A stretch of DNA of 64,000 bases. Origin: Nitrosopumilus sp. GTDB taxonomy: Archaea; Thermoproteota; Nitrososphaeria; Nitrososphaerales; Nitrosopumilaceae. The notes beneath the pieces were generated by a model. That model was not told the DNA's origin. It worked only from the letters and a program-made list of their open reading frames with translations, and did no database searches. This document shows positions 4,734 through 50,694 of the stretch, piece by piece. Within the stretch, counting starts at the first letter, position 1; the number at the start of each line of letters is the position of its first letter. A program made the translations under genes and the position numbers. The stretch is from positions 1,184,001 through 1,248,000 of the forward strand of contig OZ241857.1 in the NCBI GenBank assembly GCA_965203315.1. The letters run 5' to 3'.

Positions 4734-6064
4734 ACGTATCGTCTAGTAGCTACTATGATACCAGTCAGAGATATTATCATGATTAAGATGGCTAGTCCTC
4801 CAAACTCTGGCACAACAACTATTCTAAACTCTGTATCTTGACCCGTATTACGAATATCTTCAAACTTGATCGTTGTGGGGCCTGTCTGTTCTTCTGCGAA
4901 TGTAAACTTTTCAAACTGACCACCTATTTGAGCAACTCCAGAGGATCGATAGAGCTCTTGATCGTTTTGTAGAATGATAAAGGTGTAGGCAGAGTTACGT
5001 AGTGGCTCATTGGTCTTGCCATCACGAATTGTAAAGACAAAGTTTGTTGGAGTTTCAGGTTCTAGTTCTATTGGATCCCATGCTAGATTGACGGCAAAGT
5101 CTTCACTTATGGTATATGCTGTGAGTGGAAATGATATCTCTTCATTTGCCTCTAGTTTGAATAACATACTTTGAGGAAGTGGTTGATCAGAACTCTGCAT
5201 ATCTCTCTTTAACAGTCGTAGATGATCTTGTAGTAGAACAAAGTGTACGATTCGCTCATCGTCTTCAGTATAGTCGTCAATAACTACTGATTCCTTGAAT
5301 AGTTTTATTCCGTTGACATAACCTGTATAGCTAGGAGACAGAAACTCTACAAAGTCGTTTGGGAAATGTATCTCTTCGTGGACTACAGGTATATGAGACA
5401 TACGATCTTCACTCCAATCAAATGGCATCTCAAAGGTGACTTGCCTTGCTGCTGGAACATAATTTAGATCATGTATCTTGTCAAAGTAAGATTTGGTACG
5501 AAACTTGACATCGTCACCTTGAGAATCTGTTTGTATAAATGATTGAACTTCGGTGACGCTTAGATCTGCATAGTAGATATCGGACTCGATGATATTTGTA
5601 GGCTCATCTATCGTTCTGATCTCGATCTCAAATGTATATAGTCCACCAGAGTTGAGTAGCGGACCTGTAATCTCTATTGGATCAGAGTTTGTTCCATGCC
5701 ATGCACCTAGGATCGAGTCTTGTGTACCATGGATCGTGATCTCGGGATCGTCTGTAGGTATTGGTGTGAGGTACAGTATACCATCTTTGGCAAAAAAGTA
5801 GTTACGAAATATCATCGTGTCGTCATGGTATAGACCTATCAGAAACGTAACATTTGGGACAGGCTCGTCAGTGTCGTCATCTGATGCGGTGATTGTGATG
5901 TATCGCTGATCTTGATCAAAGTCTAGAGGCATCTCAACCGTAATGGATAATTTGCGATCTCCTACATCAATTGAAGATATTGTATCTAGACCAAGACCGT
6001 GTCCGTATGCAGTGCCTACAGTAGTACATGCCACAAATACAAGAAAGAGATGTAGATGCATCAT
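4730..6064 (-). CDS. Secreted PEFG-CTERM domain protein
   Basis: Signal peptide; C-terminal VVPEFG + TM helix + basic residues, the thaumarchaeal sorting signal. Confidence 0.85.
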   Translation of the reverse strand: MMHLHLFLVFVACTTVGTAYGHGLGLDTISSIDVGDRKLSITVEMPLDFDQDQRYITITASDDDTDEPVPNVTFLIGLYHDDTMIFRNYFFAKDGILYLTPIPTDDPEITIHGTQDSILGAWHGTNSDPIEITGPLLNSGGLYTFEIEIRTIDEPTNIIESDIYYADLSVTEVQSFIQTDSQGDDVKFRTKSYFDKIHDLNYVPAARQVTFEMPFDWSEDRMSHIPVVHEEIHFPNDFVEFLSPSYTGYVNGIKLFKESVVIDDYTEDDERIVHFVLLQDHLRLLKRDMQSSDQPLPQSMLFKLEANEEISFPLTAYTISEDFAVNLAWDPIELEPETPTNFVFTIRDGKTNEPLRNSAYTFIILQNDQELYRSSGVAQIGGQFEKFTFAEEQTGPTTIKFEDIRNTGQDTEFRIVVVPEFGGLAILIMIISLTGIIVATRRYV

Positions 6065-21925: not shown

Positions 21926-21948
21926 CCAGATATAGATTTAATCTGCAT

Positions 21949-22095
21949 ATGATTGATCAGTCTGTCTTTGTAGTTCTGGAAGCTCTTGTGTATTGGAAAG
22001 CAGATTCAGTCTATGACTTGGTATGGACTTTGGAAGCCAAGATGAGTGTGAAAACAGTAAAGCAATATTGTCAAGATGAGGTGTTAGTGATATGA
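21949..22095 (+). CDS. 48-aa hypothetical micro-protein
   Basis: ATG start; stop overlaps the next start (ATGA). Confidence 0.35.
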   Translation: MIDQSVFVVLEALVYWKADSVYDLVWTLEAKMSVKTVKQYCQDEVLVI

Positions 22096-22268
22096 GTATG
22101 TTTGATGGTTTACTTGGAAATAAGGATAAGTGTGTATGTGGAAATGAGTATGATTATATTATAATTTCTAAAAATTTTGGAGTGCCTATTTGTATCTGTG
22201 ATGATTGTTTATTGGAACTTATTTCAGTTAGGCTTAAGAGTAGAGAGGATAAGGATCGATATGACTAG
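22092..22268 (+). CDS. 58-aa Zn-finger micro-protein
   Basis: MSMFDGLLGNKDKCVCGN...ICICDDCLLE; GAGGTG SD-like site upstream. Confidence 0.6.
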   Translation: MSMFDGLLGNKDKCVCGNEYDYIIISKNFGVPICICDDCLLELISVRLKSREDKDRYD

Positions 22269-22344
22269 AGATATGGGATATATGATTCTGCTATCTGCAT
22301 TTGTGTCTATTCTAGTCTATGAATTACTTTACAGAAAGAATTGA
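22261..22344 (+). CDS. 27-aa single-TM micro-protein
   Basis: MTRDMGYMILLSAFVSILVYELLYRKN; overlaps the previous stop. Confidence 0.4.
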   Translation: MTRDMGYMILLSAFVSILVYELLYRKN

Positions 22345-22381
22345 GATGATGAGGAGTGGGATTCTAGTTTAGGTGTTTAGT

Positions 22382-22639
22382 ATGGGTTTTGAAGAAGATG
22401 TTCTACGAGAGCTTAGTTCTATTCAAAAGCGTCTTAGTCGTATTGAAAGTGAAATTAACGAAAAACATTGTGAATTTGAAAAACATTGTGAATTTCAACC
22501 AATTTTGAACGATTGTAAATTTCATGAATGGGATAGTTGTAAATTTGAAAAACATTGTGATTTTGAACGACAGGATTGTAAATTTGAGAGACAGGATTGT
22601 AGATATGAAAGACCTGATGGTTGTAGGTATAATGGATAG
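22382..22639 (+). CDS. 85-aa protein with a helical N-terminus and eight Cys-x-(F/Y) repeats
   Basis: AGGTG upstream; EKHCEF / ERQDCKF / ERQDCRY repeats. Confidence 0.7.
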   Translation: MGFEEDVLRELSSIQKRLSRIESEINEKHCEFEKHCEFQPILNDCKFHEWDSCKFEKHCDFERQDCKFERQDCRYERPDGCRYNG

Positions 22640-22696
22640 TTGGTAAGATGGTATGCAGGTGTCATTTACTTAACAGATTATCAATGTTCTATTGAA

Positions 22697-22813
22697 TCAT
22701 ATCTTACCAAGTCTCTCTATCTTTCTACCAAAATACGCTATGGTTCTAATCATGCCAGATATGGTATCATCAAGTTCAGTCAAGGGATCTGGCTTGGCTT
22801 TACGTTTAGGCAT
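22697..22813 (-). CDS. 38-aa basic micro-protein
   Basis: MPKRKAKPDPLTELDDTISGMIRTIAYFGRKIERLGKI; TATATA at 22836-22841 could serve this ORF and the divergent 22868 ORF. Confidence 0.4.
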   Translation of the reverse strand: MPKRKAKPDPLTELDDTISGMIRTIAYFGRKIERLGKI

Positions 22814-22867
22814 GATGGTTATAGTATCAATCTAGTATATATGGTGTTTGAGTATGGGCTTGATTTA

Positions 22868-23068
22868 ATGAGTGTGAAAAGTAAGATAGTTAGTGGGTTC
22901 ATTATTACAAGTTTTGTATTTCTAATCATGTGGATATTTTGGATGATATATGCTTTGGAAAACTATGAAGCTGATATGGGTTTTACTGTTATGAGTTTGA
23001 TTATTCCTATTGGAATAATGTGTTTGATTAGTATTGGATTTGTGATTTATAGAGTTGTCAAAAGATGA
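22868..23068 (+). CDS. 66-aa two-TM protein
   Basis: Start at MSVKSKIVSG preferred over TTG 22640; two hydrophobic helices. Confidence 0.6.
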   Translation: MSVKSKIVSGFIITSFVFLIMWIFWMIYALENYEADMGFTVMSLIIPIGIMCLISIGFVIYRVVKR

Positions 23069-23259
23069 GTGCTATTGGTTGGGTTTTGTTGTTTGTTATA
23101 CCGTTTTTGTTTATTTATGTTTTGTATAATGCATTGGGTTCTGATAAGAAAGGTGGTTTCTACTGTTGGAATTGTGGTTTACAGTTTGATTGTATTGTAG
23201 ATGTTTGTTCTAGGTGTGGTTCTGTTAGAATAAAAAAGATAAAAAAGGGATTAAGGTGA
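23065..23259 (+). CDS. 64-aa TM + Zn-ribbon protein
   Basis: TM helix; CWNC..CSRC; basic tail; ATGA overlap. Confidence 0.65.
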   Translation: MSAIGWVLLFVIPFLFIYVLYNALGSDKKGGFYCWNCGLQFDCIVDVCSRCGSVRIKKIKKGLR

Positions 23260-24039
23260 TTCTAACTCCTCAATTTTCTTTGTTGCGTTGTTAAGTTCTT
23301 GAGTAAGTTTCTCTATGGTTTGTTCATGTTCAGATATGGTTTGTAGTTGTTGAATAGAAGTTGTGTTCATGATTTGATACAGTCTTTGCAGTTCAGATAG
23401 TTCAGTCTTGGTTTGATTTAGTTCATTCGTGGTCCTTTTCTTGTCATCATTACAAGCTCCGTGTTTGTTCTTTAGTTCCTTGTTCTTTTCTTTGAGTTTC
23501 TGTATCTGTTCATCATTGGATTCTGTTGTTCTATCTGGTTGATTAGATGGTGTCAAGTTGAATGTTCTTGCTATCAGGTTTATGATTCGTTCATCAGTAT
23601 TTTCATGATGGACTATGATTCTCTTGGTTATTGAACTCCATTCTCCATCAACAATACAGTTTTTAGGTAAAAATTTGAATTCATGACTTCCTATATCTTT
23701 TGCAATGAGTAGGATATATCCATCTGGTTCTAGATATTTTTTATTAGCATTATACTCATCGGCGGTTTTAGTTTTAATGTTATCTCTGTTTAAAACTCTA
23801 TAATCAGTTTGAATAATCTCACTAGTAGAGATAGTGTTGCCTTCTTGTATATACAATGGTTCATTACTAGTGTTGATGAGTTTTAGAGAGTCATGTAGAG
23901 CTATCTCTATATCACTATTATCACAATTCTCAAATATCTCATTTAAACTGTATTCGTGTATCATTGCTTCAACATCATCAACTAGACCTATAACTCCAAT
24001 AAGAGATACTGCAGTTAGGACTATTGGCACTATGTTCAT
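23251..24039 (-). CDS. Secreted head-plus-coiled-coil protein, paralogous at both termini to 9144-11504
   Basis: Signal AVSLIGVIGLVDDV vs AVSIMGVIGLVDNV; C-terminus KLTQELNNATKKIEELESP vs KLTQELSEAKKKIEELESP. Confidence 0.8.
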   Translation of the reverse strand: MNIVPIVLTAVSLIGVIGLVDDVEAMIHEYSLNEIFENCDNSDIEIALHDSLKLINTSNEPLYIQEGNTISTSEIIQTDYRVLNRDNIKTKTADEYNANKKYLEPDGYILLIAKDIGSHEFKFLPKNCIVDGEWSSITKRIIVHHENTDERIINLIARTFNLTPSNQPDRTTESNDEQIQKLKEKNKELKNKHGACNDDKKRTTNELNQTKTELSELQRLYQIMNTTSIQQLQTISEHEQTIEKLTQELNNATKKIEELESP

Positions 24040-24085
24040 TGATTATACCCAGATTGGATAGTAAATAAGCCTTGTTTTTTGGTAT

Positions 24086-24560
24086 TTGGTACCAAGTTGG
24101 TACTATAACTAGTACTAAACTGGTACCAAGATTCTAGGCATTGTAAAGCAGTTCTGGTACCAAGTTGGTACCATTGAGCTCATGTTTGTGAGCTCAATGT
24201 CTAAATCGTGCCTAAAAACATGAGCTCAAAGTTGAGCTCAATGTGAGCTCATAAACATGAGCTCAATGACTGTTGAGCTAAAATGTTGAGCTAAAAGCCT
24301 GGATTCGTGCCTAATCTGTTGAGCTAAGATTGAGCTAAATGTTGAGCTAACTGCAGATTATCGATATGGATATCATTATGGATATCTATATGGATATCAC
24401 AAAGTAGGCATGAAAAACCATGATATCCAAATATGGATATCAGTATGATATCCAAGTTTACCCATTGGGTATAATCTATACCCAAGATCTACCCAAATTA
24501 TACCCAAAAATCTAGGCATGGTTTACCCAAATTATACCCAAGTTTTACCCAATGGGTAAA
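24086..24560. repeat. Five-module array of phased short motifs, each module centred on TAGGCA/TGCCTA
   Basis: Module motifs: RGTACY, GAGCTC, GAGCTA, GATATC, TACCC; cores at 24135, 24209, 24308, 24405 and 24513. Confidence 0.9.
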
Positions 24561-24561
24561 T

Positions 24562-24710
24562 TAGATTATAGGAATACTCTAACCCAGTCCTTCTTGCCTT
24601 GCCTAAAGAGATATTAGATGAGATTTCCTATTAGGTATGGTTGATACCTTGTGTGGAAACTTGGTATTGACTGCAAGAAGGACTGGTTATGGGGGCAACC
24701 TCATAATCTA
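24562..24710 (+). ncRNA. Candidate ~150-nt hairpin RNA or ssDNA structure
   Basis: Perfect 14-bp IR (24584-24597 / 24673-24686); outer 8-bp IR (24562 / 24703); nested inner stems; strand inferred only from G-U pairs. Confidence 0.5.
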
Positions 24711-24875
24711 CTTGATTCTGGTGTTTTGTGTAAAAGATTGTGATATGGTAGATTCTAGGCACGAAATTGGTTGGAAAGGCTTGATTTGGTTTATATGTAG
24801 AAAGTTCCTAAATAGCCTTGTCTAATTTTCTAAAAAATTATGTTGCTATTGTATATCATAGTTTGAATTGGTACA

Positions 24876-25640
24876 TCATCTCTCTACAGGTAGCTCTAGT
24901 CTATTTCCCCACTCGCCCCAAGAACCGAGATATACTCGTACGTTCTCAAATCCAAGATACTTTAACGTAAGAAAAGAGTTTGCGGCACGATATGCTCCTT
25001 GGCAGTATGTTACAATATCTGCGTCCTGTGATATATTATACAGTTTAGACAAAGAACTTGTATCCAAGAGAGTTCCGTCTTGTGTAAGATTGAGATTCCA
25101 GTCTATGTTGATCGAGTTTGGTATATGACCTCCTCGAGCTGCGCGAATTATACTGCCTGTATATTCTGCGCGTGATCTCGCGTCGATTATAATCAGATTG
25201 GGATCGTCTCGGATCTCTTCAAAACCGATAATCAGTTTAGGGTTGGTCTGTCCTTCAAATTTGGATGGACGGTATGGGTTGCCGGTCTGTTCTATGGGCA
25301 GATGAGCCCTTTGCCATGCTTGGATTCCACCATTGAGCATTGCAGTATTTTCATTTGACATGTACATCGCCATCCAAACTCCACGAGCAGCAAGCATTCC
25401 AGATGTATTATCATAAAAGACGGTCTTCCTGTGATCAGCCATGCCAACAAAAGAGAAGAGAGTTCTTGTCTGCTGATCAAAGTTTGTAATTCCATTACTA
25501 GTTGTGTCAAACCAATGAAACGCAAATAGATCTAGATGTATTGCGCCAGGTATATGACCGCTAGCATACTCTTTAAACGATCTTGTATCGACTATTAGAG
25601 GATCGTCGAGTCTCTGAAGCTCATCTACAGATATTAGCAT
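24876..25640 (-). CDS. Two-domain rhodanese / thiosulfate sulfurtransferase
   Basis: YASGHIPGA, GHIPNS, active loop YCQGAYRA, VYLGSWGEW. Confidence 0.92.
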   Translation of the reverse strand: MLISVDELQRLDDPLIVDTRSFKEYASGHIPGAIHLDLFAFHWFDTTSNGITNFDQQTRTLFSFVGMADHRKTVFYDNTSGMLAARGVWMAMYMSNENTAMLNGGIQAWQRAHLPIEQTGNPYRPSKFEGQTNPKLIIGFEEIRDDPNLIIIDARSRAEYTGSIIRAARGGHIPNSINIDWNLNLTQDGTLLDTSSLSKLYNISQDADIVTYCQGAYRAANSFLTLKYLGFENVRVYLGSWGEWGNRLELPVER

Positions 25641-30462: not shown

Positions 30463-32043
30463 TTAGGTCTCACGCACAACTCTTAGCATTTCTTCGTATG
30501 GATTGAGTCCTTGTTGCTTCCATGTAGTTATACATGTAAAGATTGAACTCAATCGTTGTCTGCCTTTCTCAGATACGACATGTTGACACGTCTTGCGGAA
30601 TAGCACGAGTCTTCTCAGAGCACGTTCTGCCCGATTGTTTGTCGGCTCCATGCCCGGATGTGTCACGAATGTGTACAGTTCATGTGCAGCATTCTCTAGA
30701 TGAGTACCAAATTTGATATCCATCTTTTTGTATGCAGCTGCAAGCCGCAACGTCTCGCGTATGAGATCGTCTACAGCATATTTGAGATACAGGTCTACGC
30801 AATTGGGATCCTTTGCTTGTAGTCGAGTGGCAATCTCAAATAGTGCATGCAACCTCCGAAACATCATTAATGTACGTACATCACATACTGCACTTTCCGC
30901 GTGTCGCAATACGTGCGCCCAACACCGCTGCCGTATTTTAAACAAAAAATACACCGAATATCCATCACATACGAGTGGTATGTAGACAAATTTTCCAAAA
31001 TTCTCTTTTAGGAATTTCTTTCCACGTGATGGTCCTATCATAAATTGCGTACCATAATCGCCTACCAACACCCAAACCCATCCCAATGCTGCTAAAAGAG
31101 ATAGTGATGTCTCGTCCATGTGTGTATATCTTGACTTTTGGTTGCGTTCTGCAATCTTGTCCGCTTCTTTTTTGAGTCTGTCGCCAACCTCGTTTATTGC
31201 TCCAGTTACCATGTTATGAGAGATACGTGGATCCAAACACTGTAGCGATGTCGTTATTGACTTTATGCTGCTGCCACACTCTCTCATTATGGTCGCCATA
31301 CAGCCTAAATTCACGCCTAGCATTGTATTGTTTAATACATCTGGTATGTTATCTAGCGTGTTACCTGCACTGCCACAACAATTGCAGGCATATTTGTATC
31401 CGTTATGCATTATGACTTTGATATTGCACTCTAAATCCATAGATATTGTGTGTCCAGCGAACACGTTTGTCATATCTTGACTTCCACAATCATCACATTG
31501 TTCTTTTTTATGTGGTACGATCTCGTCTGCAGATATATCGTGTGTGATTCCATCATATCCCTTTGGTCGTCCTACCGGTTTTGGTACGGTTACTAGTTTT
31601 ACTTTTTTTGTACCTGATTTTGGTTTTCGTGATCGTGGAGTATTATGATTATTAGAAATCTCTCCTAGTTTCTCTTTCTCTTTGGCCTGTTCTGTTTGAG
31701 CTTTAATCTTTTCTTGTTTGTCATCTATCTTCTTTTTGGTGTTACGAATCTTGGTCTTGGATAAATTTTCTTCACGTTCAATAATGTTAATCACTTTCTT
31801 AAACGCAGTGATGCATGCAACTATTGCATTAGGTGATACTTGGAGTCCTAGCAGTGCAGTAATCAAAATCTTGTACACCTTTAGCATGTTCTTGCTCTTT
31901 TGTGCTAGTTGTGTTTGAAGAGATTCGACTGCTGCGTCACTCTCTTTCTTGGCATTCTTTAGCTGTGTCATCTCCTTAGCCATTGCTTGTTTCTCTGCCT
32001 TTAGAGTGGCTATCTGCTCTTGGTACGCAAGAATCGTAGACAT
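30463..32043 (-). CDS. IS66 transposase
   Basis: Coiled coil; CDDC..CNCC Zn finger; HMDET, VCDGY, QRCWAH and PTNNRAERALR. Confidence 0.92.
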   Translation of the reverse strand: MSTILAYQEQIATLKAEKQAMAKEMTQLKNAKKESDAAVESLQTQLAQKSKNMLKVYKILITALLGLQVSPNAIVACITAFKKVINIIEREENLSKTKIRNTKKKIDDKQEKIKAQTEQAKEKEKLGEISNNHNTPRSRKPKSGTKKVKLVTVPKPVGRPKGYDGITHDISADEIVPHKKEQCDDCGSQDMTNVFAGHTISMDLECNIKVIMHNGYKYACNCCGSAGNTLDNIPDVLNNTMLGVNLGCMATIMRECGSSIKSITTSLQCLDPRISHNMVTGAINEVGDRLKKEADKIAERNQKSRYTHMDETSLSLLAALGWVWVLVGDYGTQFMIGPSRGKKFLKENFGKFVYIPLVCDGYSVYFLFKIRQRCWAHVLRHAESAVCDVRTLMMFRRLHALFEIATRLQAKDPNCVDLYLKYAVDDLIRETLRLAAAYKKMDIKFGTHLENAAHELYTFVTHPGMEPTNNRAERALRRLVLFRKTCQHVVSEKGRQRLSSIFTCITTWKQQGLNPYEEMLRVVRET

Positions 32044-32228
32044 GACTCTAGTTGGTAAAGGCGGTGTTTAAGTTAGGATATCGCATAAAGTTGTCCTTTT
32101 AGTTTACATTTCTTGACCTACATTCAGATGATAGAAGGCATGTGAGTCGATCCAAGCGATCACCTGTAAATCGATCTAAAAGAGAAAATGCAAACGAACA
32201 GATTACCCATCTAAAAAAGAAAAACAAG

Positions 32229-33236
32229 ATGATCTATATCGGAATAGATGCACACAAGAGGTTTCTGCAAATTGCAGCAATGGATCAGGATGGCAAGCGT
32301 ATACTCAATGAGCGTGTTGCTACAGATCATGACAGTCTCAAAAAATTCTTTGCACAATTTACACCACTCAATACACGTTGTGTGATGGAGTCATCGTCAG
32401 TATGGTATTGGCTGTATAGATACTTGACAGATGAATTGGGATTTGATGTAGTACTATCGAATCCATATCAAACAAAGGCTATTGCCGAATCAAAGAAAAA
32501 GACAGACAAGGTGGATGCATGGACACTGGCAGATCTTTTAAGAGGAAATTATATCTCGCCTTGTTTTGTTCCTAGTGAATACACTGTTAAATTAAAACAG
32601 TTGGTTCGACATAGGGATGTAATTGTAAAGAGTAGAACAAAATACAAGAATCTCATACATGGGATATTACTGCAATATGGGATTAAAATACCTGGTTCAA
32701 GTTTTAGCAAGTCATTTAGAGAGGAATTGAAGAAACTTGAGGATTATAGAATAGACAACTATCTAGATATGATAACTTGCCATGAAGAAATGATTAGACA
32801 ATTGGATATTAAAATGCGTGAGGAGGTAAAGAGATCACAAGATGCACAGCTGTTAAAGACGATTCCCGGAGTTGGAAACTTTGTTGCACTTGTTGTAATA
32901 TCTAGTATTGGAGATGTCAAGAGATTCCCAACTGTTCGTAAGATATGTTCGTATGCAGGAATAGTACCATCTGTTCGTAATTCAGCTGGTAAACAAAATC
33001 ATGGACATATAACGAGGAAAGGTGATAAAATGCTTAGATGGGCATTGACCGAAGCAGTTCATGTACACATAAAATGTGAGCCCCATAGTTACATTACAAA
33101 ATTTCATAACAGAATTAAAAAGAGACGCGCGGTAAGCAAAGCAACTGTTGCAACTGCCTCCAAACTACTACGATTGATGTACCATATGCTTATAGATAGG
33201 GATGATTATGTCACACATTGTAGTCGAAATCATTAA
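32229..33236 (+). CDS. IS110 DEDD recombinase/transposase
   Basis: YIGIDAHK, VMESS, KTDKVDA, TIPGVG and GIVPSVRNSAG. Confidence 0.93.
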   Translation: MIYIGIDAHKRFLQIAAMDQDGKRILNERVATDHDSLKKFFAQFTPLNTRCVMESSSVWYWLYRYLTDELGFDVVLSNPYQTKAIAESKKKTDKVDAWTLADLLRGNYISPCFVPSEYTVKLKQLVRHRDVIVKSRTKYKNLIHGILLQYGIKIPGSSFSKSFREELKKLEDYRIDNYLDMITCHEEMIRQLDIKMREEVKRSQDAQLLKTIPGVGNFVALVVISSIGDVKRFPTVRKICSYAGIVPSVRNSAGKQNHGHITRKGDKMLRWALTEAVHVHIKCEPHSYITKFHNRIKKRRAVSKATVATASKLLRLMYHMLIDRDDYVTHCSRNH

Positions 33237-48888: not shown

Positions 48889-48939
48889 ATAGCACGTATG
48901 ATAGCATATACAATAGCATATACAATAGCATATACAATA
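48889..48939. repeat. 12-bp tandem repeat ATAGCATATACA (three perfect copies + one degenerate)
   Basis: Read directly from the sequence. Confidence 0.85.
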
Positions 48940-48998: not shown

Positions 48999-50694
48999 GT
49001 ATGAGGTTAGGTCTCACGCACAACTTTTAGGAGTGTATCATAGACGTTGAGACCTTGTTGCTCCCATGTTGTTACACATGTAAAGATATTGCCAACTCGT
49101 CGTTTACTCTCCTCAGATACAATACGTTGAGTTACCTTGCGGAATAGCACCATTGATCGTATAGCTCGCTCTGCTCTGTTGTTTGTGTATTCCATACCAT
49201 AGTACAGCACAAACGTGTATAGATCATCTGCAGCATTAGCTAAATGAACTCCAAATTTGCGACAAGCTTCGTTGTCTAGTTTCTTGTACTCTGCTGCAAG
49301 TGATAATGTCTTTTGCACTAGATCATCTACTCTGTATTTTAGGTATATGTCCACATGATTGGGATTGTCCACCTGTAGTGCTTTTGCAATTTCAAGTAGT
49401 TTTTGTAATCTTTTGTACATTAGTACAGTATGTACGTCACACATTGTATCTTTTGCATTTCGCAGTATGTGCGCCCAACAACGTTGCCGTACATTGAATA
49501 GCTTGTACACGGCATATCCATCCGACACGAGTGGTATCAGAATATACTTTTTGAACGTTTTTTCAAGAAACTTTTTTGTACGATCTGGCGATATGATAAA
49601 TTGCGTACCATAATCGCCGACAAGAACCCAGACCCATCCCAATTTCGCAGCAAGGGACATCGACGTCTCGTCCATGTAGATTACCTTGGATTTTAGGTTC
49701 ATTCTCTCTATTTTTTTGACATATTTGTCTAGTTTATCGGCAATCGTGTCTATTGCACCCGTTACCATCTTTTTAGATATACATGGGTCTAGGCATTGAA
49801 GAGTACTAGTTATTGTTCTGATACTACAGCCATTCTTTCTCATTATGGTTGCAATCACGCCTAGAATTGGGCACAACATTGTGTTGTGTAGTATGTCTGG
49901 GATGCTGTCGAATGTATCGCCTGATGCGCCACAATCTCTACAGTTGTAAAAGTATCCTATATGGAGTATGTGCAATATTATGATCTGTATGTCAATCGTT
50001 CTCTTTTGTCTAGACCTCTTGTTGTCAACATGCTTACTGCCACATCCATCACACTTTTCTTTTTTATGATGTTTTGTCTTGTCTGTTTTTATGTTGTCGG
50101 AAACTCCTTTGTGACCCTTGTCTTGTCCTGCTTTTTTCCATTCGCTTTTAGATTTTCTTGTACCCTTTTTTACATGATCTGGTTGTTTTGATGACGGTAC
50201 GTTAGAATTGTCGAGCTGCTTGCGTCTCGTTTCTTTGTTCTTGGCCTGTGCTGTTTGTACCTCTATCTTTTCTTTTTTACCCTCTATCTTTTTTCTGGTG
50301 TTACGAATCTTGGTCTGTGATAGTTGTTGACCACGTTCTATTATCTTGATCATCCTTTGGAATACATTAAAACAATCATTGATTGAATTTGGAGATACTT
50401 GAAGTCCCATAATTGTAGCAAGTAAAATCTCGTACAGTTTCATATTCATTCTCTCATGCTTTGCAACTTGTTTTTGTAGACTCGTAATGGTCTCTTGTTG
50501 TTGTTCGATGGTATCATTTTGCTGCTTGACAGTATCCTCTAGATCTGCTATCTTGGTAGCCGTCTCTCTATCTTTCTTGGCCTTTTGTCTCGCGATCTGT
50601 CTAGACATTGTCATAATTGGTAATGTTTGGATTTAGCCTAGATTATCTAGAAAAGTTGTCCCTTTTGGTAGATCTTTTAAACCTAACCTCGTAC
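48999..50694 (-). mobile_element. Complete IS66-family element
   Basis: TIRs GTA(T/C)GAGGTTAGGT (13/14); perfect 8-bp TSD AGAAAATC at 48991 and 50695. Confidence 0.93.
49007..50614 (-). CDS. IS66 transposase
   Basis: YMDET, VSDGY, QRCWAH and TNNRAERAIR; paralog of 30463-32043. Confidence 0.92.
   Translation of the reverse strand: MTMSRQIARQKAKKDRETATKIADLEDTVKQQNDTIEQQQETITSLQKQVAKHERMNMKLYEILLATIMGLQVSPNSINDCFNVFQRMIKIIERGQQLSQTKIRNTRKKIEGKKEKIEVQTAQAKNKETRRKQLDNSNVPSSKQPDHVKKGTRKSKSEWKKAGQDKGHKGVSDNIKTDKTKHHKKEKCDGCGSKHVDNKRSRQKRTIDIQIIILHILHIGYFYNCRDCGASGDTFDSIPDILHNTMLCPILGVIATIMRKNGCSIRTITSTLQCLDPCISKKMVTGAIDTIADKLDKYVKKIERMNLKSKVIYMDETSMSLAAKLGWVWVLVGDYGTQFIISPDRTKKFLEKTFKKYILIPLVSDGYAVYKLFNVRQRCWAHILRNAKDTMCDVHTVLMYKRLQKLLEIAKALQVDNPNHVDIYLKYRVDDLVQKTLSLAAEYKKLDNEACRKFGVHLANAADDLYTFVLYYGMEYTNNRAERAIRSMVLFRKVTQRIVSEESKRRVGNIFTCVTTWEQQGLNVYDTLLKVVRET

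Follow-up and report, generated by a model that had tools for sequence, protein, structure and literature searches.

What kind of element repeats one short core five times, each time between a different set of phased repeats, and what might it do in an archaeal chromosome? The question is raised by 475 bp of non-coding DNA at 24086-24560 of the window, by which we mean the whole 64,000-nucleotide (64-kb) stretch of Nitrosopumilus sp. DNA that was analyzed (G000:C1:1184001-1248000; G000 is the subject genome, with 2.47 Mb, 38.6% GC, and 7 contigs, and positions given without a contig are those of the window). The 475 bp form an array of five abutting modules, M1 to M5; the repeat type differs from module to module, and each module contains TAGGCA, here called the keystone. 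We found that the keystone stands in an exact register with the repeats on its 5' side. The reading that we favor, tentatively and with somewhat less than even confidence, is that the array may act as a DNA-level nucleoprotein lattice of the plasmid centromere or iteron kind, in which the keystone site is common to all modules and the specificity of the arms can be exchanged.

Anatomy of the array

A first-pass annotation, made from the sequence alone, had listed 29 motif positions and five TAGGCA cores, and a regular-expression scan recovered all of them. The modules are as follows.

24086..24175, plus strand: M1, units TGGTACCAA/TGGTACTAT/TAGTACTAA, four on the 5' side and two on the 3' side; keystone unit TCTAGGCAT; RGTACY at 24088, 24099, 24111, and 24122, TAGGCA at 24135-24140, then RGTACY at 24156 and 24167.
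24172..24268, minus strand: M2, inverted, palindromic units TGAGCTCA(A/T), four on the 5' side and two on the 3' side in core orientation; keystone unit TTTAGGCAC; GAGCTC at 24176 and 24190, TGCCTA at 24209-24214, then GAGCTC at 24222, 24234, 24245, and 24259.
24271..24352, minus strand: M3, inverted, non-palindromic units TTAGCTCAA, three on the 5' side and two on the 3' side; keystone unit ATTAGGCAC; GAGCTA at 24275 and 24288, TGCCTA at 24308-24313, then GAGCTA at 24321, 24332, and 24344.
24362..24455, plus strand: M4, three units TGGATATCA on the 5' side and TGATATCCA/TGGATATCA/TGATATCCA on the 3' side; keystone unit AGTAGGCAT; GATATC at 24369, 24381, and 24393, TAGGCA at 24405-24410, then GATATC at 24422, 24436, and 24447.
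24457..24560, plus strand: M5, (T/C)(A/T)TACCCAA direct repeats on both sides; keystone unit TCTAGGCAT; end palindromes TACCCATTGGGTA and TACCCAATGGGTA; TACCC at 24459, 24479, 24490, and 24501, TAGGCA at 24513-24518, then TACCC at 24524, 24535, and 24546.

Within the arms, 15 of the 20 spacings measure 11-12 bp, in agreement with the annotation, and the remainder are 13, 14, 14, 14, and 20 bp. In every module, 6-7 nt separate TAGGCA from the nearest 5' motif; the inversion of M2 and M3 and the two palindromes at the ends of M5 were likewise found as claimed. The core had been given as TAGGCAYG, which is correct for M2 to M5 but not for M1, whose core is TAGGCATT. The arms are variously palindromic, inverted, or direct, and both arms are homotypic in all five modules. 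M5 is an unbroken chain of seven units at 11-12-bp steps (TATACCCAA, TCTACCCAA, TATACCCAA, TCTAGGCAT, TTTACCCAA, TATACCCAA, TTTACCCAA), the keystone being the fourth. M2 also has a decayed keystone-like unit, TTTAGACAT, at +11, which occupies the slot between the core and the 3' units.

Register of the keystone

We aligned the modules in core orientation and calculated conservation by column. TAGGCA (columns 0-5) is invariant; a T at -14 is found in all five modules, and a C at -8 and an A at -7 and at -6 are each found in four of the five. Because these positions are kept, all five unit types fit the frame T-N5-CA-W in a fixed register with the core. The core itself, taken as the nine-mer xYTAGGCAY, obeys the same frame and is thus one slot of the lattice. 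The annotation had proposed TTG-N4-HAA as a shared frame; a common frame does exist, but T-N5-CA-W describes the motifs better.

Measured from start to start, the keystone unit follows the nearest 5' unit by exactly 12 bp in every module (24121 to 24133 in M1; 24228 to 24216 and 24327 to 24315, on the minus strand, in M2 and M3; 24391 to 24403 in M4, derived by hand from the motif coordinates, as the script picked another frame). The 3' units restart after 22, 20, 21, 17, and 11 bp in M1 to M5, respectively. Across the core the arms remain in frame (34, 32, 33, 29, and 23 bp), in keeping with helical phasing. A fixed 5' step combined with a variable 3' restart characterizes an oriented composite site. 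The columns of unique spacer by the core mostly carry 0.3-1.1 bits and are not conserved between modules. If the constancy of the core merely reflected slow change of single-copy DNA, the adjoining bases would match too; they differ, which argues that the keystone and its register are under selection. The five central bases of the units differ between modules, while the edges, T...CA, are common to all. The earlier claim that geometry is kept while specificity is exchanged therefore holds, and it is sharpened by the exact 12-bp register and by the shared edges around differing centers.

The arms retain traces of their history. The same two-unit blocks are present on both sides of the core in M1 (TGGTACCAAGTTGGTAC) and in M5 (ACCCAAATTATACCCAA), and Tandem Repeats Finder (TRF) reported 13-bp copies with 100% identity in M3. 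Since these blocks are identical, the arms are probably younger than the cores. M2 (TTGAGCTCAA) and M3 (TTGAGCTAA) are neighbors in the same orientation, and their units differ by one base each, as expected from local duplication.

The common edges, the identical two-unit blocks that flank the core in M1 and M5, and the identical copies in M3 would also fit a single protein that reads only T-N5-CA-W and the period. The centers would then be neutral, each having become module-specific through slippage of a founder unit, and no specificity would have been exchanged. We assign this explanation a small probability. A strict chain of four or more T.....CAA is absent even at the array; the relaxed frame gave 219 chains compared with 79 in the reversed control, and few of the longest are perfect tandem repeats. 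In addition, a single reader leaves both the homotypic arms and the invariance of the keystone unexplained.

A functionless minisatellite cluster, grown from one ancestral unit through duplication and replication slippage, would account for the perfect unit duplications in the arms, and short-period tandem repeats are abundant in the genome. In such a cluster, however, one has to explain why the spacers have diverged, yet the core of 6-8 bases and the 12-bp register are invariant in five of five modules, and why repeat structures in other genera (G337, G077, and G154, described below) contain the same keystone. We consider it very unlikely.

Periodicity, rarity, and stability

The pattern goes far beyond what chance would give. 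Over 24086-24560, base-identity autocorrelation was 0.37 at lags 11 and 12; in 500 shuffles it averaged 0.288 and never exceeded 0.333. When TAGGCA/TGCCTA sites were scored for a 6-mer repeated on both flanks, the five modules scored 9, 6, 6, 6, and 6, which is within the top 7 of 801 sites in the genome; the score was at most 3 at 779 of these. A genome-wide scan for in-phase hexamers returned 58 regions, among which the array locus was the richest and the sole one with several different motifs. TAGGCAYG has 83 copies in the genome, or about 0.024 per 700 bp. Five of them fall inside 550 bp (M2 to M5 and a solitary core at 24756), for which the Poisson estimate at the 700-bp scale is approximately 6e-11.

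The motifs of the array are essentially confined to the locus. The share of genome copies that lie within it is 1 of 1 for TTGAGCTCAA, 6 of 20 for TGAGCTCA, 5 of 15 for TTGAGCTAA, and 2 of 2 for each of the two 13-mer palindromes. This means that there is no host regulon, which counts in favor of the centromere-like reading.

The stretch that contains the array was found in Logan contigs from three studies with no differences, indels, or alternative joints, although one of the three contig sources may be the source assembly, and contigs hide rare variants. The first-pass annotation had considered an assembly artefact and proposed a comparison among strains or reads; because the contigs of three studies are identical, the array is not such an artefact. 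A decayed coding repeat was also rejected, as open reading frames (ORFs) over the array reach 53 aa at most and the 11-12-bp period is no consistent multiple of three.

DNA or RNA, and the palindromic centers

Could the array act as RNA? A transcript might fold into hairpins that present UAGGCAYG in single-stranded loops and act like a protein sponge. Compared with shuffles, the folding z-scores were -6.3 for M1, -10.6 for M2, -5.5 for M4, and -4.3 for M5, every minimum-energy fold leaves the core unpaired, and the modules of the array in G337 place the core between inverted half-sites. Arrays of palindromic units fold well in any case, however, and M3 is unstructured (z = +0.4). On the same strand, M2 and M3 would display the complement of the motif. 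A search of Rfam 15 gave no matches at the gathering score; what fell below it was microRNA-type noise on the palindromic arms. The presence of both core orientations together with palindromic, inverted, and direct arms fits recognition of double-stranded DNA better than of RNA. An RNA hairpin array is thus unlikely, and we see only a slim chance for it.

The centers of the units contain GGTACC, GAGCTC, GATATC, GTAC, and AGCT, and the annotation had linked them to restriction-modification (R-M), with the array as a decoy or a methylation sensor. This link found no support in a count of the palindromes, none of which is avoided genome-wide: the ratios of observed to expected copies are 1.04 for GTAC, 1.10 for AGCT, 1.07 for GATATC, 1.06 for GAGCTC, and 0.82 for GGTACC, and when the 64 six-base palindromes are ordered by avoidance, the most avoided first, the R-M palindromes fall at ranks 25 to 56. 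The units of M3 and M5 and the keystone are not palindromic at all. A cluster of R-M or methylation sites is scarcely credible. In the same genome, CTAG is over-represented (1.53), which is the opposite of what is usual in prokaryotes, and GGCC is the most avoided four-base palindrome (0.64).

Genomic setting and the adjacent secreted gene

The array lies in an 836-bp spacer (24040-24875), which is bordered by a gene for a secreted coiled-coil protein (262 aa, 23251-24039, minus strand) and the 3' end of a rhodanese gene (24876-25640, minus strand). Genes for a V-type ATPase, the Amt ammonium transporter, and the two-domain rhodanese surround it. The further features of the locus are listed here.

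21926..24875, no strand: species-specific low-GC insert between convergent atpI and rhodanese genes, with small orphan ORFs, the secreted-protein gene, and the array (genome comparison).
24040..24079, minus strand: promoter and 5' region of the secreted coiled-coil gene, 95% identical to a paralogue region at G000:C5:306904-306942.
24600..24665, no strand: possible decayed module, with TGCCTA at 24600-24605, TAGGTATGGTTGATACC, which resembles TAGGCATGGTTTACCC of M5, at 24632-24648, and then GGTAT/GATACC half-sites.
24754..24763, plus strand: solitary sixth keystone, TCTAGGCACG, without phased arms (motif scan).

The core orientations are + - - + + from M1 to M5, and + - - + + + if the solitary sixth is included. 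Just past the array, a perfect 14-bp inverted repeat (CCAGTCCTTCTTGC at 24584-24597 and GCAAGAAGGACTGG at 24673-24686) has 75 nt between its arms. Two IS66-family transposase genes (30463-32043 and 32142-33236) and one IS110-family gene (49007-50614) break up the housekeeping region farther along the window.

The gap between atpI and the rhodanese gene is 2950 bp in G000, with a GC content of 0.31-0.37 compared with 0.39-0.49 in the flanking genes. The two genes are also convergent in relatives of the same genus, where the gap measures 17-1172 bp (20 loci that hold both genes). Its cargo differs from locus to locus among these 20 and is a secreted protein, a methyltransferase-like gene, or small ORFs. 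Because the gap varies in size and cargo and the insert is low in GC, the array appears to be accessory DNA at an insertion hot spot. A phased 6-mer chain was present in none of 29 same-genus loci around the rhodanese gene.

The array begins 47 bp upstream of the start codon of the secreted gene, directly past its promoter, and the annotation had suggested a control region for this gene. Host transcription factors on the phased sites might turn the promoter at 24040-24079 on or off. A sequence similar to the M5 unit, GGGTATAAT, is found in the 5' region of this gene, and phased sequence is not peculiar to the locus, as many other 7-13-bp tandem arrays in intergenic DNA, 58 phased regions in all, attest. 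The link to the gene turned out to be weak, however. The upstream DNA of the C5 paralogue, which shares the promoter, diverges exactly at the start of the array, and neither this paralogue nor a full-length paralogue at C1:613915-614688 has an array. Elsewhere in the genome the motifs have no targets, no regulator gene is found alongside, and the related array in G337 lies downstream of genes and not at a promoter. With 475 bp and five specificities, the array would go far beyond the archaeal promoters known to us. We therefore regard an upstream regulatory bank as possible but rather unlikely. A metagenome scan with the secreted protein gave one weak match (43% identity over 58 residues).

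Searches for related arrays

Homology to the 836-bp spacer in 40 relatives did not extend beyond about 45 nt, with no match better than E = 3.9e-4, and a blastn search of the spacer against PLSDB plasmids and GenBank phages returned no match. Within the family, 401 genomes were searched for pairs of TAGGCAYG copies on one strand, 80-110 bp apart. Twenty-four genomes matched; since the reversed control also matched in 11, many of these matches are due to chance.

One of them, G337, which belongs to another genus of the same archaeal family, contains a comparable array. At L084:9979-10407, four to five modules of TTTAGGCACGTGA follow one another at steps of 70, 42, and 74 bp, with the half-sites TTTACG/CGTAAA, TTTCAC/GTGAAA, and TTTACC/GGTAAA on a lattice of about 10.5-11 bp. 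As in G000, the keystone (TAGGCACG, four to five copies at 42-74-bp steps) is combined with differing half-sites in non-coding DNA. In contrast to G000, the arms have only 2+1 half-sites, the cores all point in one orientation, and 2 nt, as opposed to 6-7, separate half-site and keystone. The two arrays have no sequence homology beyond the keystone. The expectation that comparable modules occur elsewhere thus came true in the form of a keystone with different arms, but in only one of the 401 family genomes, as searched with one pattern.

The G337 array lies downstream of genes in an island that encodes a tyrosine integrase (E = 2.7e-10) and a MazE/AbrB-like protein. This setting, together with the two orientations of the cores in G000, is what would be expected if a site-specific recombinase crossed over at the cores (att-, shufflon-, or fim-like) and accessory proteins bound the arms; inverted cores would permit inversions that reshuffle the arms. 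PMC6563490 gives the att sites of thaumarchaeal integrated elements as short (median 17 bp), with 15 of 68 intergenic, which would also suit this idea. We nevertheless see only a slight chance for it: no recombinase gene is found near the array, and the 64-kb window has none other than the IS66 and IS110 transposases. No trace of a past exchange of arms is seen, all five modules being homotypic; the contigs from the three studies, which hide rare variants, have no alternative joint; and the G337 island is not flanked by a direct repeat containing TAGGCA.

Several other loci share the keystone and were noted as separate structures. In G077 (L054, C1:743699-744186), a 48-bp tandem repeat has at least 15 copies of CTCTAGGCACGAA with a small hairpin, and in G154 (L060, C2:1055198-1055406), a repeat of about 100 bp has 3 copies with TTCGTGCCTAGC; both genomes are from other genera, and both repeats are built on a CGTGCCTAG/CTAGGCACG core with a short hairpin. 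A second cluster of TAGGCA cores, joined to G-strings (TAGGCAYG...TAAACCCCCC / GGGGGGTTTAGC...TAGGCA), is located in a 1.27-kb gene-free stretch of G000 (C1:323840-324200), and three same-genus genomes (L070, L071, and L066) have similar elements. At C1:558480-558660, two phased TTTCAC/TTTCAG arrays surround a 45-bp center with TAGGCA; their period is 9-10 bp, and the 12-bp register is absent. Among the G337, G077, G154, and G-string loci, only G337 has the design of one keystone with different arms. The keystone itself is thus common across genera and tied to no identifiable gene.

Wider searches added no further case. A GTDB-wide three-core pattern matched at least 111 stretches, mostly clustered regularly interspaced short palindromic repeats (CRISPR) and tandem repeats of unrelated taxa; two from this phylum were among the matches listed, both already in the family search. 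Patterns for single modules matched 14 stretches (M1), 28 (M3), and at least 102 (M5) in IMG/VR, and none for M2 and M4. The 173 matches examined were unrelated repeats of phages and giant viruses; TAGGCA was within 80 nt in 4 of them, and none had the architecture. Unrelated phage contigs (L044, L047, L049, and L293) have at least three phased copies of TTGGTACCAA-like, TACCCAA-like, or TGTACCCAA-like units, which in places adjoin tRNA-like sequence or DnaA-box-like/TTATCCACA boxes. Units of this sort thus serve elsewhere as protein-binding iterons or arm sites, an analogy that counts for a centromere- or iteron-like array. A full-text literature search, which covered mostly abstracts, found neither such arrays nor a TAGGCAYG-binding factor described in archaea; the motif strings matched primers and DtxR boxes.

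Comparison with known element classes

The array has the trait of a plasmid centromere, that is, two in-phase clusters of repeats of about 11 bp that flank a core. In parC of plasmid R1, the binding site of ParR (type II partition), two in-phase clusters of direct repeats of about 11 bp likewise surround a short unique core, within about 100-160 bp. R1 parC, however, consists of a single module with the parMR promoter as its core and with parM and parR next to it. The array has five modules with different repeats, and the common core is itself in register and not promoter-like: no TATA-like box was found in the cores of the aligned modules.

The parS sites of P1 and P7 offer the closest parallel to a common keystone with exchangeable arms. 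In these, a central site for a host factor (IHF) is constant, and the flanking arms with ParB box A and box B set element-specific recognition. They differ from the array in that they are bacterial, occur once per replicon next to parA and parB, and lack an 11-bp lattice of many identical units; the keystone factor of the array is, moreover, hypothetical. Iteron origins and rolling-circle or circular Rep-encoding single-stranded DNA (CRESS) origins resemble the array through phased, replicon-specific direct repeats beside a short sequence that is conserved across related replicons; unlike iteron origins, the array has no rep gene.

Several classes were tried and rejected. Repeats are present as in an iteron replication origin, but there is no rep-like gene in 21926-24875; on reading the array sequence, no long AT-only unwinding stretch was seen, and we know of no case of five origins in tandem. 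The canonical chromosomal origin is 75 kb away at C1:1282880-1283170, where origin recognition boxes (ORB; GTGGAAATGAAGGGG type) surround an AT-rich stretch by the sole orc1/cdc6 gene of the genome; the keystone is no part of these ORB boxes. A dispersed repeat, such as a repetitive extragenic palindrome or bacterial interspersed mosaic element (REP/BIME) or a miniature inverted-repeat transposable element (MITE), does not apply because the motifs are confined to the locus, and the only other genome match is the 39-bp promoter paralogue.

The likeness to plasmid centromeres and iterons that the annotation had noticed therefore stands for the architecture, but membership in these classes does not, given the absence of an adjacent par, rep, or recombinase gene and of RHH_1 matches. 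Because membership fails on gene content, our claim is that the array would work like such an element, not that it is one.

A proposed lattice with exchangeable arms

We propose that the array may comprise five adjoining nucleoprotein assembly sites. Each module would be a one-face lattice of 7-9 nine-base slots, spaced 11-12 bp apart. One slot per module would be the invariant keystone xYTAGGCAY(G), placed one 12-bp step 3' of a module-specific unit, and the remaining slots would carry the module-specific center: GGTAC, GAGCT, TAGCT, GGATAT, or ATACC. A factor common to all modules would bind the asymmetric, oriented keystone; as the keystone is present in another genus too, this factor would probably be encoded by the host. 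Small oligomerizing DNA-binding proteins would then cover the arms in a cooperative manner along the same face of the helix, polymerizing from the adjacent slot 12 bp away. The outcome may be akin to that of ParR on parC, ParB with IHF on P1 parS, or Rep on iterons. The modules may have arisen through duplication. Their arms may have been turned over as blocks of 11-12 bp and of two units were duplicated, with selection preserving both the keystone and the register. Both the location of the array and its one relative suggest that it stems from mobile DNA and that it serves partition, incompatibility, silencing, or operator control, not housekeeping.

A number of results weigh against such a lattice. 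Pfam scans found no partition NTPase or ribbon-helix-helix adaptor, as in a parC-type gene context, in the neighboring ORFs, and no integrase, rep, or par gene in the insert (21926-24875). RHH_1 has no match in the whole genome (E<=0.01), and the neighboring ORFs have no DNA-binding Pfam domain, so a candidate binding protein was not found. To our knowledge, no single plasmid or virus carries five specificities in tandem. The 83 genomic copies of TAGGCAYG compare with about 99 expected from base composition, which is no genome-wide enrichment, and solitary copies keep no consistent distance or orientation relative to genes across the genome. No ongoing turnover is visible in the array, which is identical across the three studies. 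G337 has the only comparable array in 401 genomes, its arms are much shorter (scores of 3 compared with 6-9), and the proteins of its island have no relative in G000. The 277-aa protein next to the G337 array has 30 relatives, all unnamed or hypothetical and none in viral contigs; no array was found beside its homologues in 4 other genomes, and the gene is thus not tied to the array.

A further-reaching version is quite unlikely to hold in full. Ammonia-oxidizing archaea might share a code of keystone and arms, in which a conserved reader of YTAGGCAYG cooperates with interchangeable arm proteins 12 bp away. The array would then be a bank of five orthogonal assembly sites. These could form a centromere or incompatibility locus with multiple specificities, which would titrate the proteins that invaders use for partition or replication, or they could be orthogonal silencers.

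Other repeats in the genome

The following were observed apart from the array. Intergenic 11-13-bp tandem arrays with unrelated units are located at 48889-48939 of the window and at C1:563546, 654476, 970071, and 1907286, C6:52557, and C5:143650; long perfect arrays at C1:665779 and C1:1264231 have 16 in-phase copies each. Arrays of the heptamer TATCCAT lie by a repeated element at C1:243863, C1:723163, and C5:239172. An element of about 105 nt (GTATGACGTTAGGTC...TTTAGGCAYGAAAAA...GATCATGCCTGAC...CATCATACC) with complementary ends is found at C1:9352, C1:1072079, C1:1123518, C5:288879, and C5:9352. It is conserved, its contexts are unrelated, and Rfam has no match for it; a MITE and a small RNA gene are both conceivable. 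C1 and C5 share motif positions 5077 and 9352 with identical flanks, which suggests that their first ~9.4 kb are the same; this common start could be a repeat or a contig end duplicated in the assembly.

Implications

As far as we found, a tandem bank in which an invariant unit stays in register while the arms change, and which recurs in a second genus, has not been described, whereas phased repeats around a core are already known. In ammonia-oxidizing archaea, little is known of the cis sites for partition, plasmid control, and gene regulation, or of DNA-binding proteins. The locus offers five side-by-side variants of one architecture, with the invariant keystone as an internal control; it could be used as protein bait and suits the study of how specificity is exchanged under constant geometry. 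Even if it were only an upstream regulatory region, it would be unusually elaborate for archaea. If the arms are cognate sites of proteins from mobile elements, a chromosomal bank of such sites would interfere with mobile DNA in a new way, and if it titrates the proteins of invaders, the array would be a new kind of anti-plasmid or anti-virus decoy.

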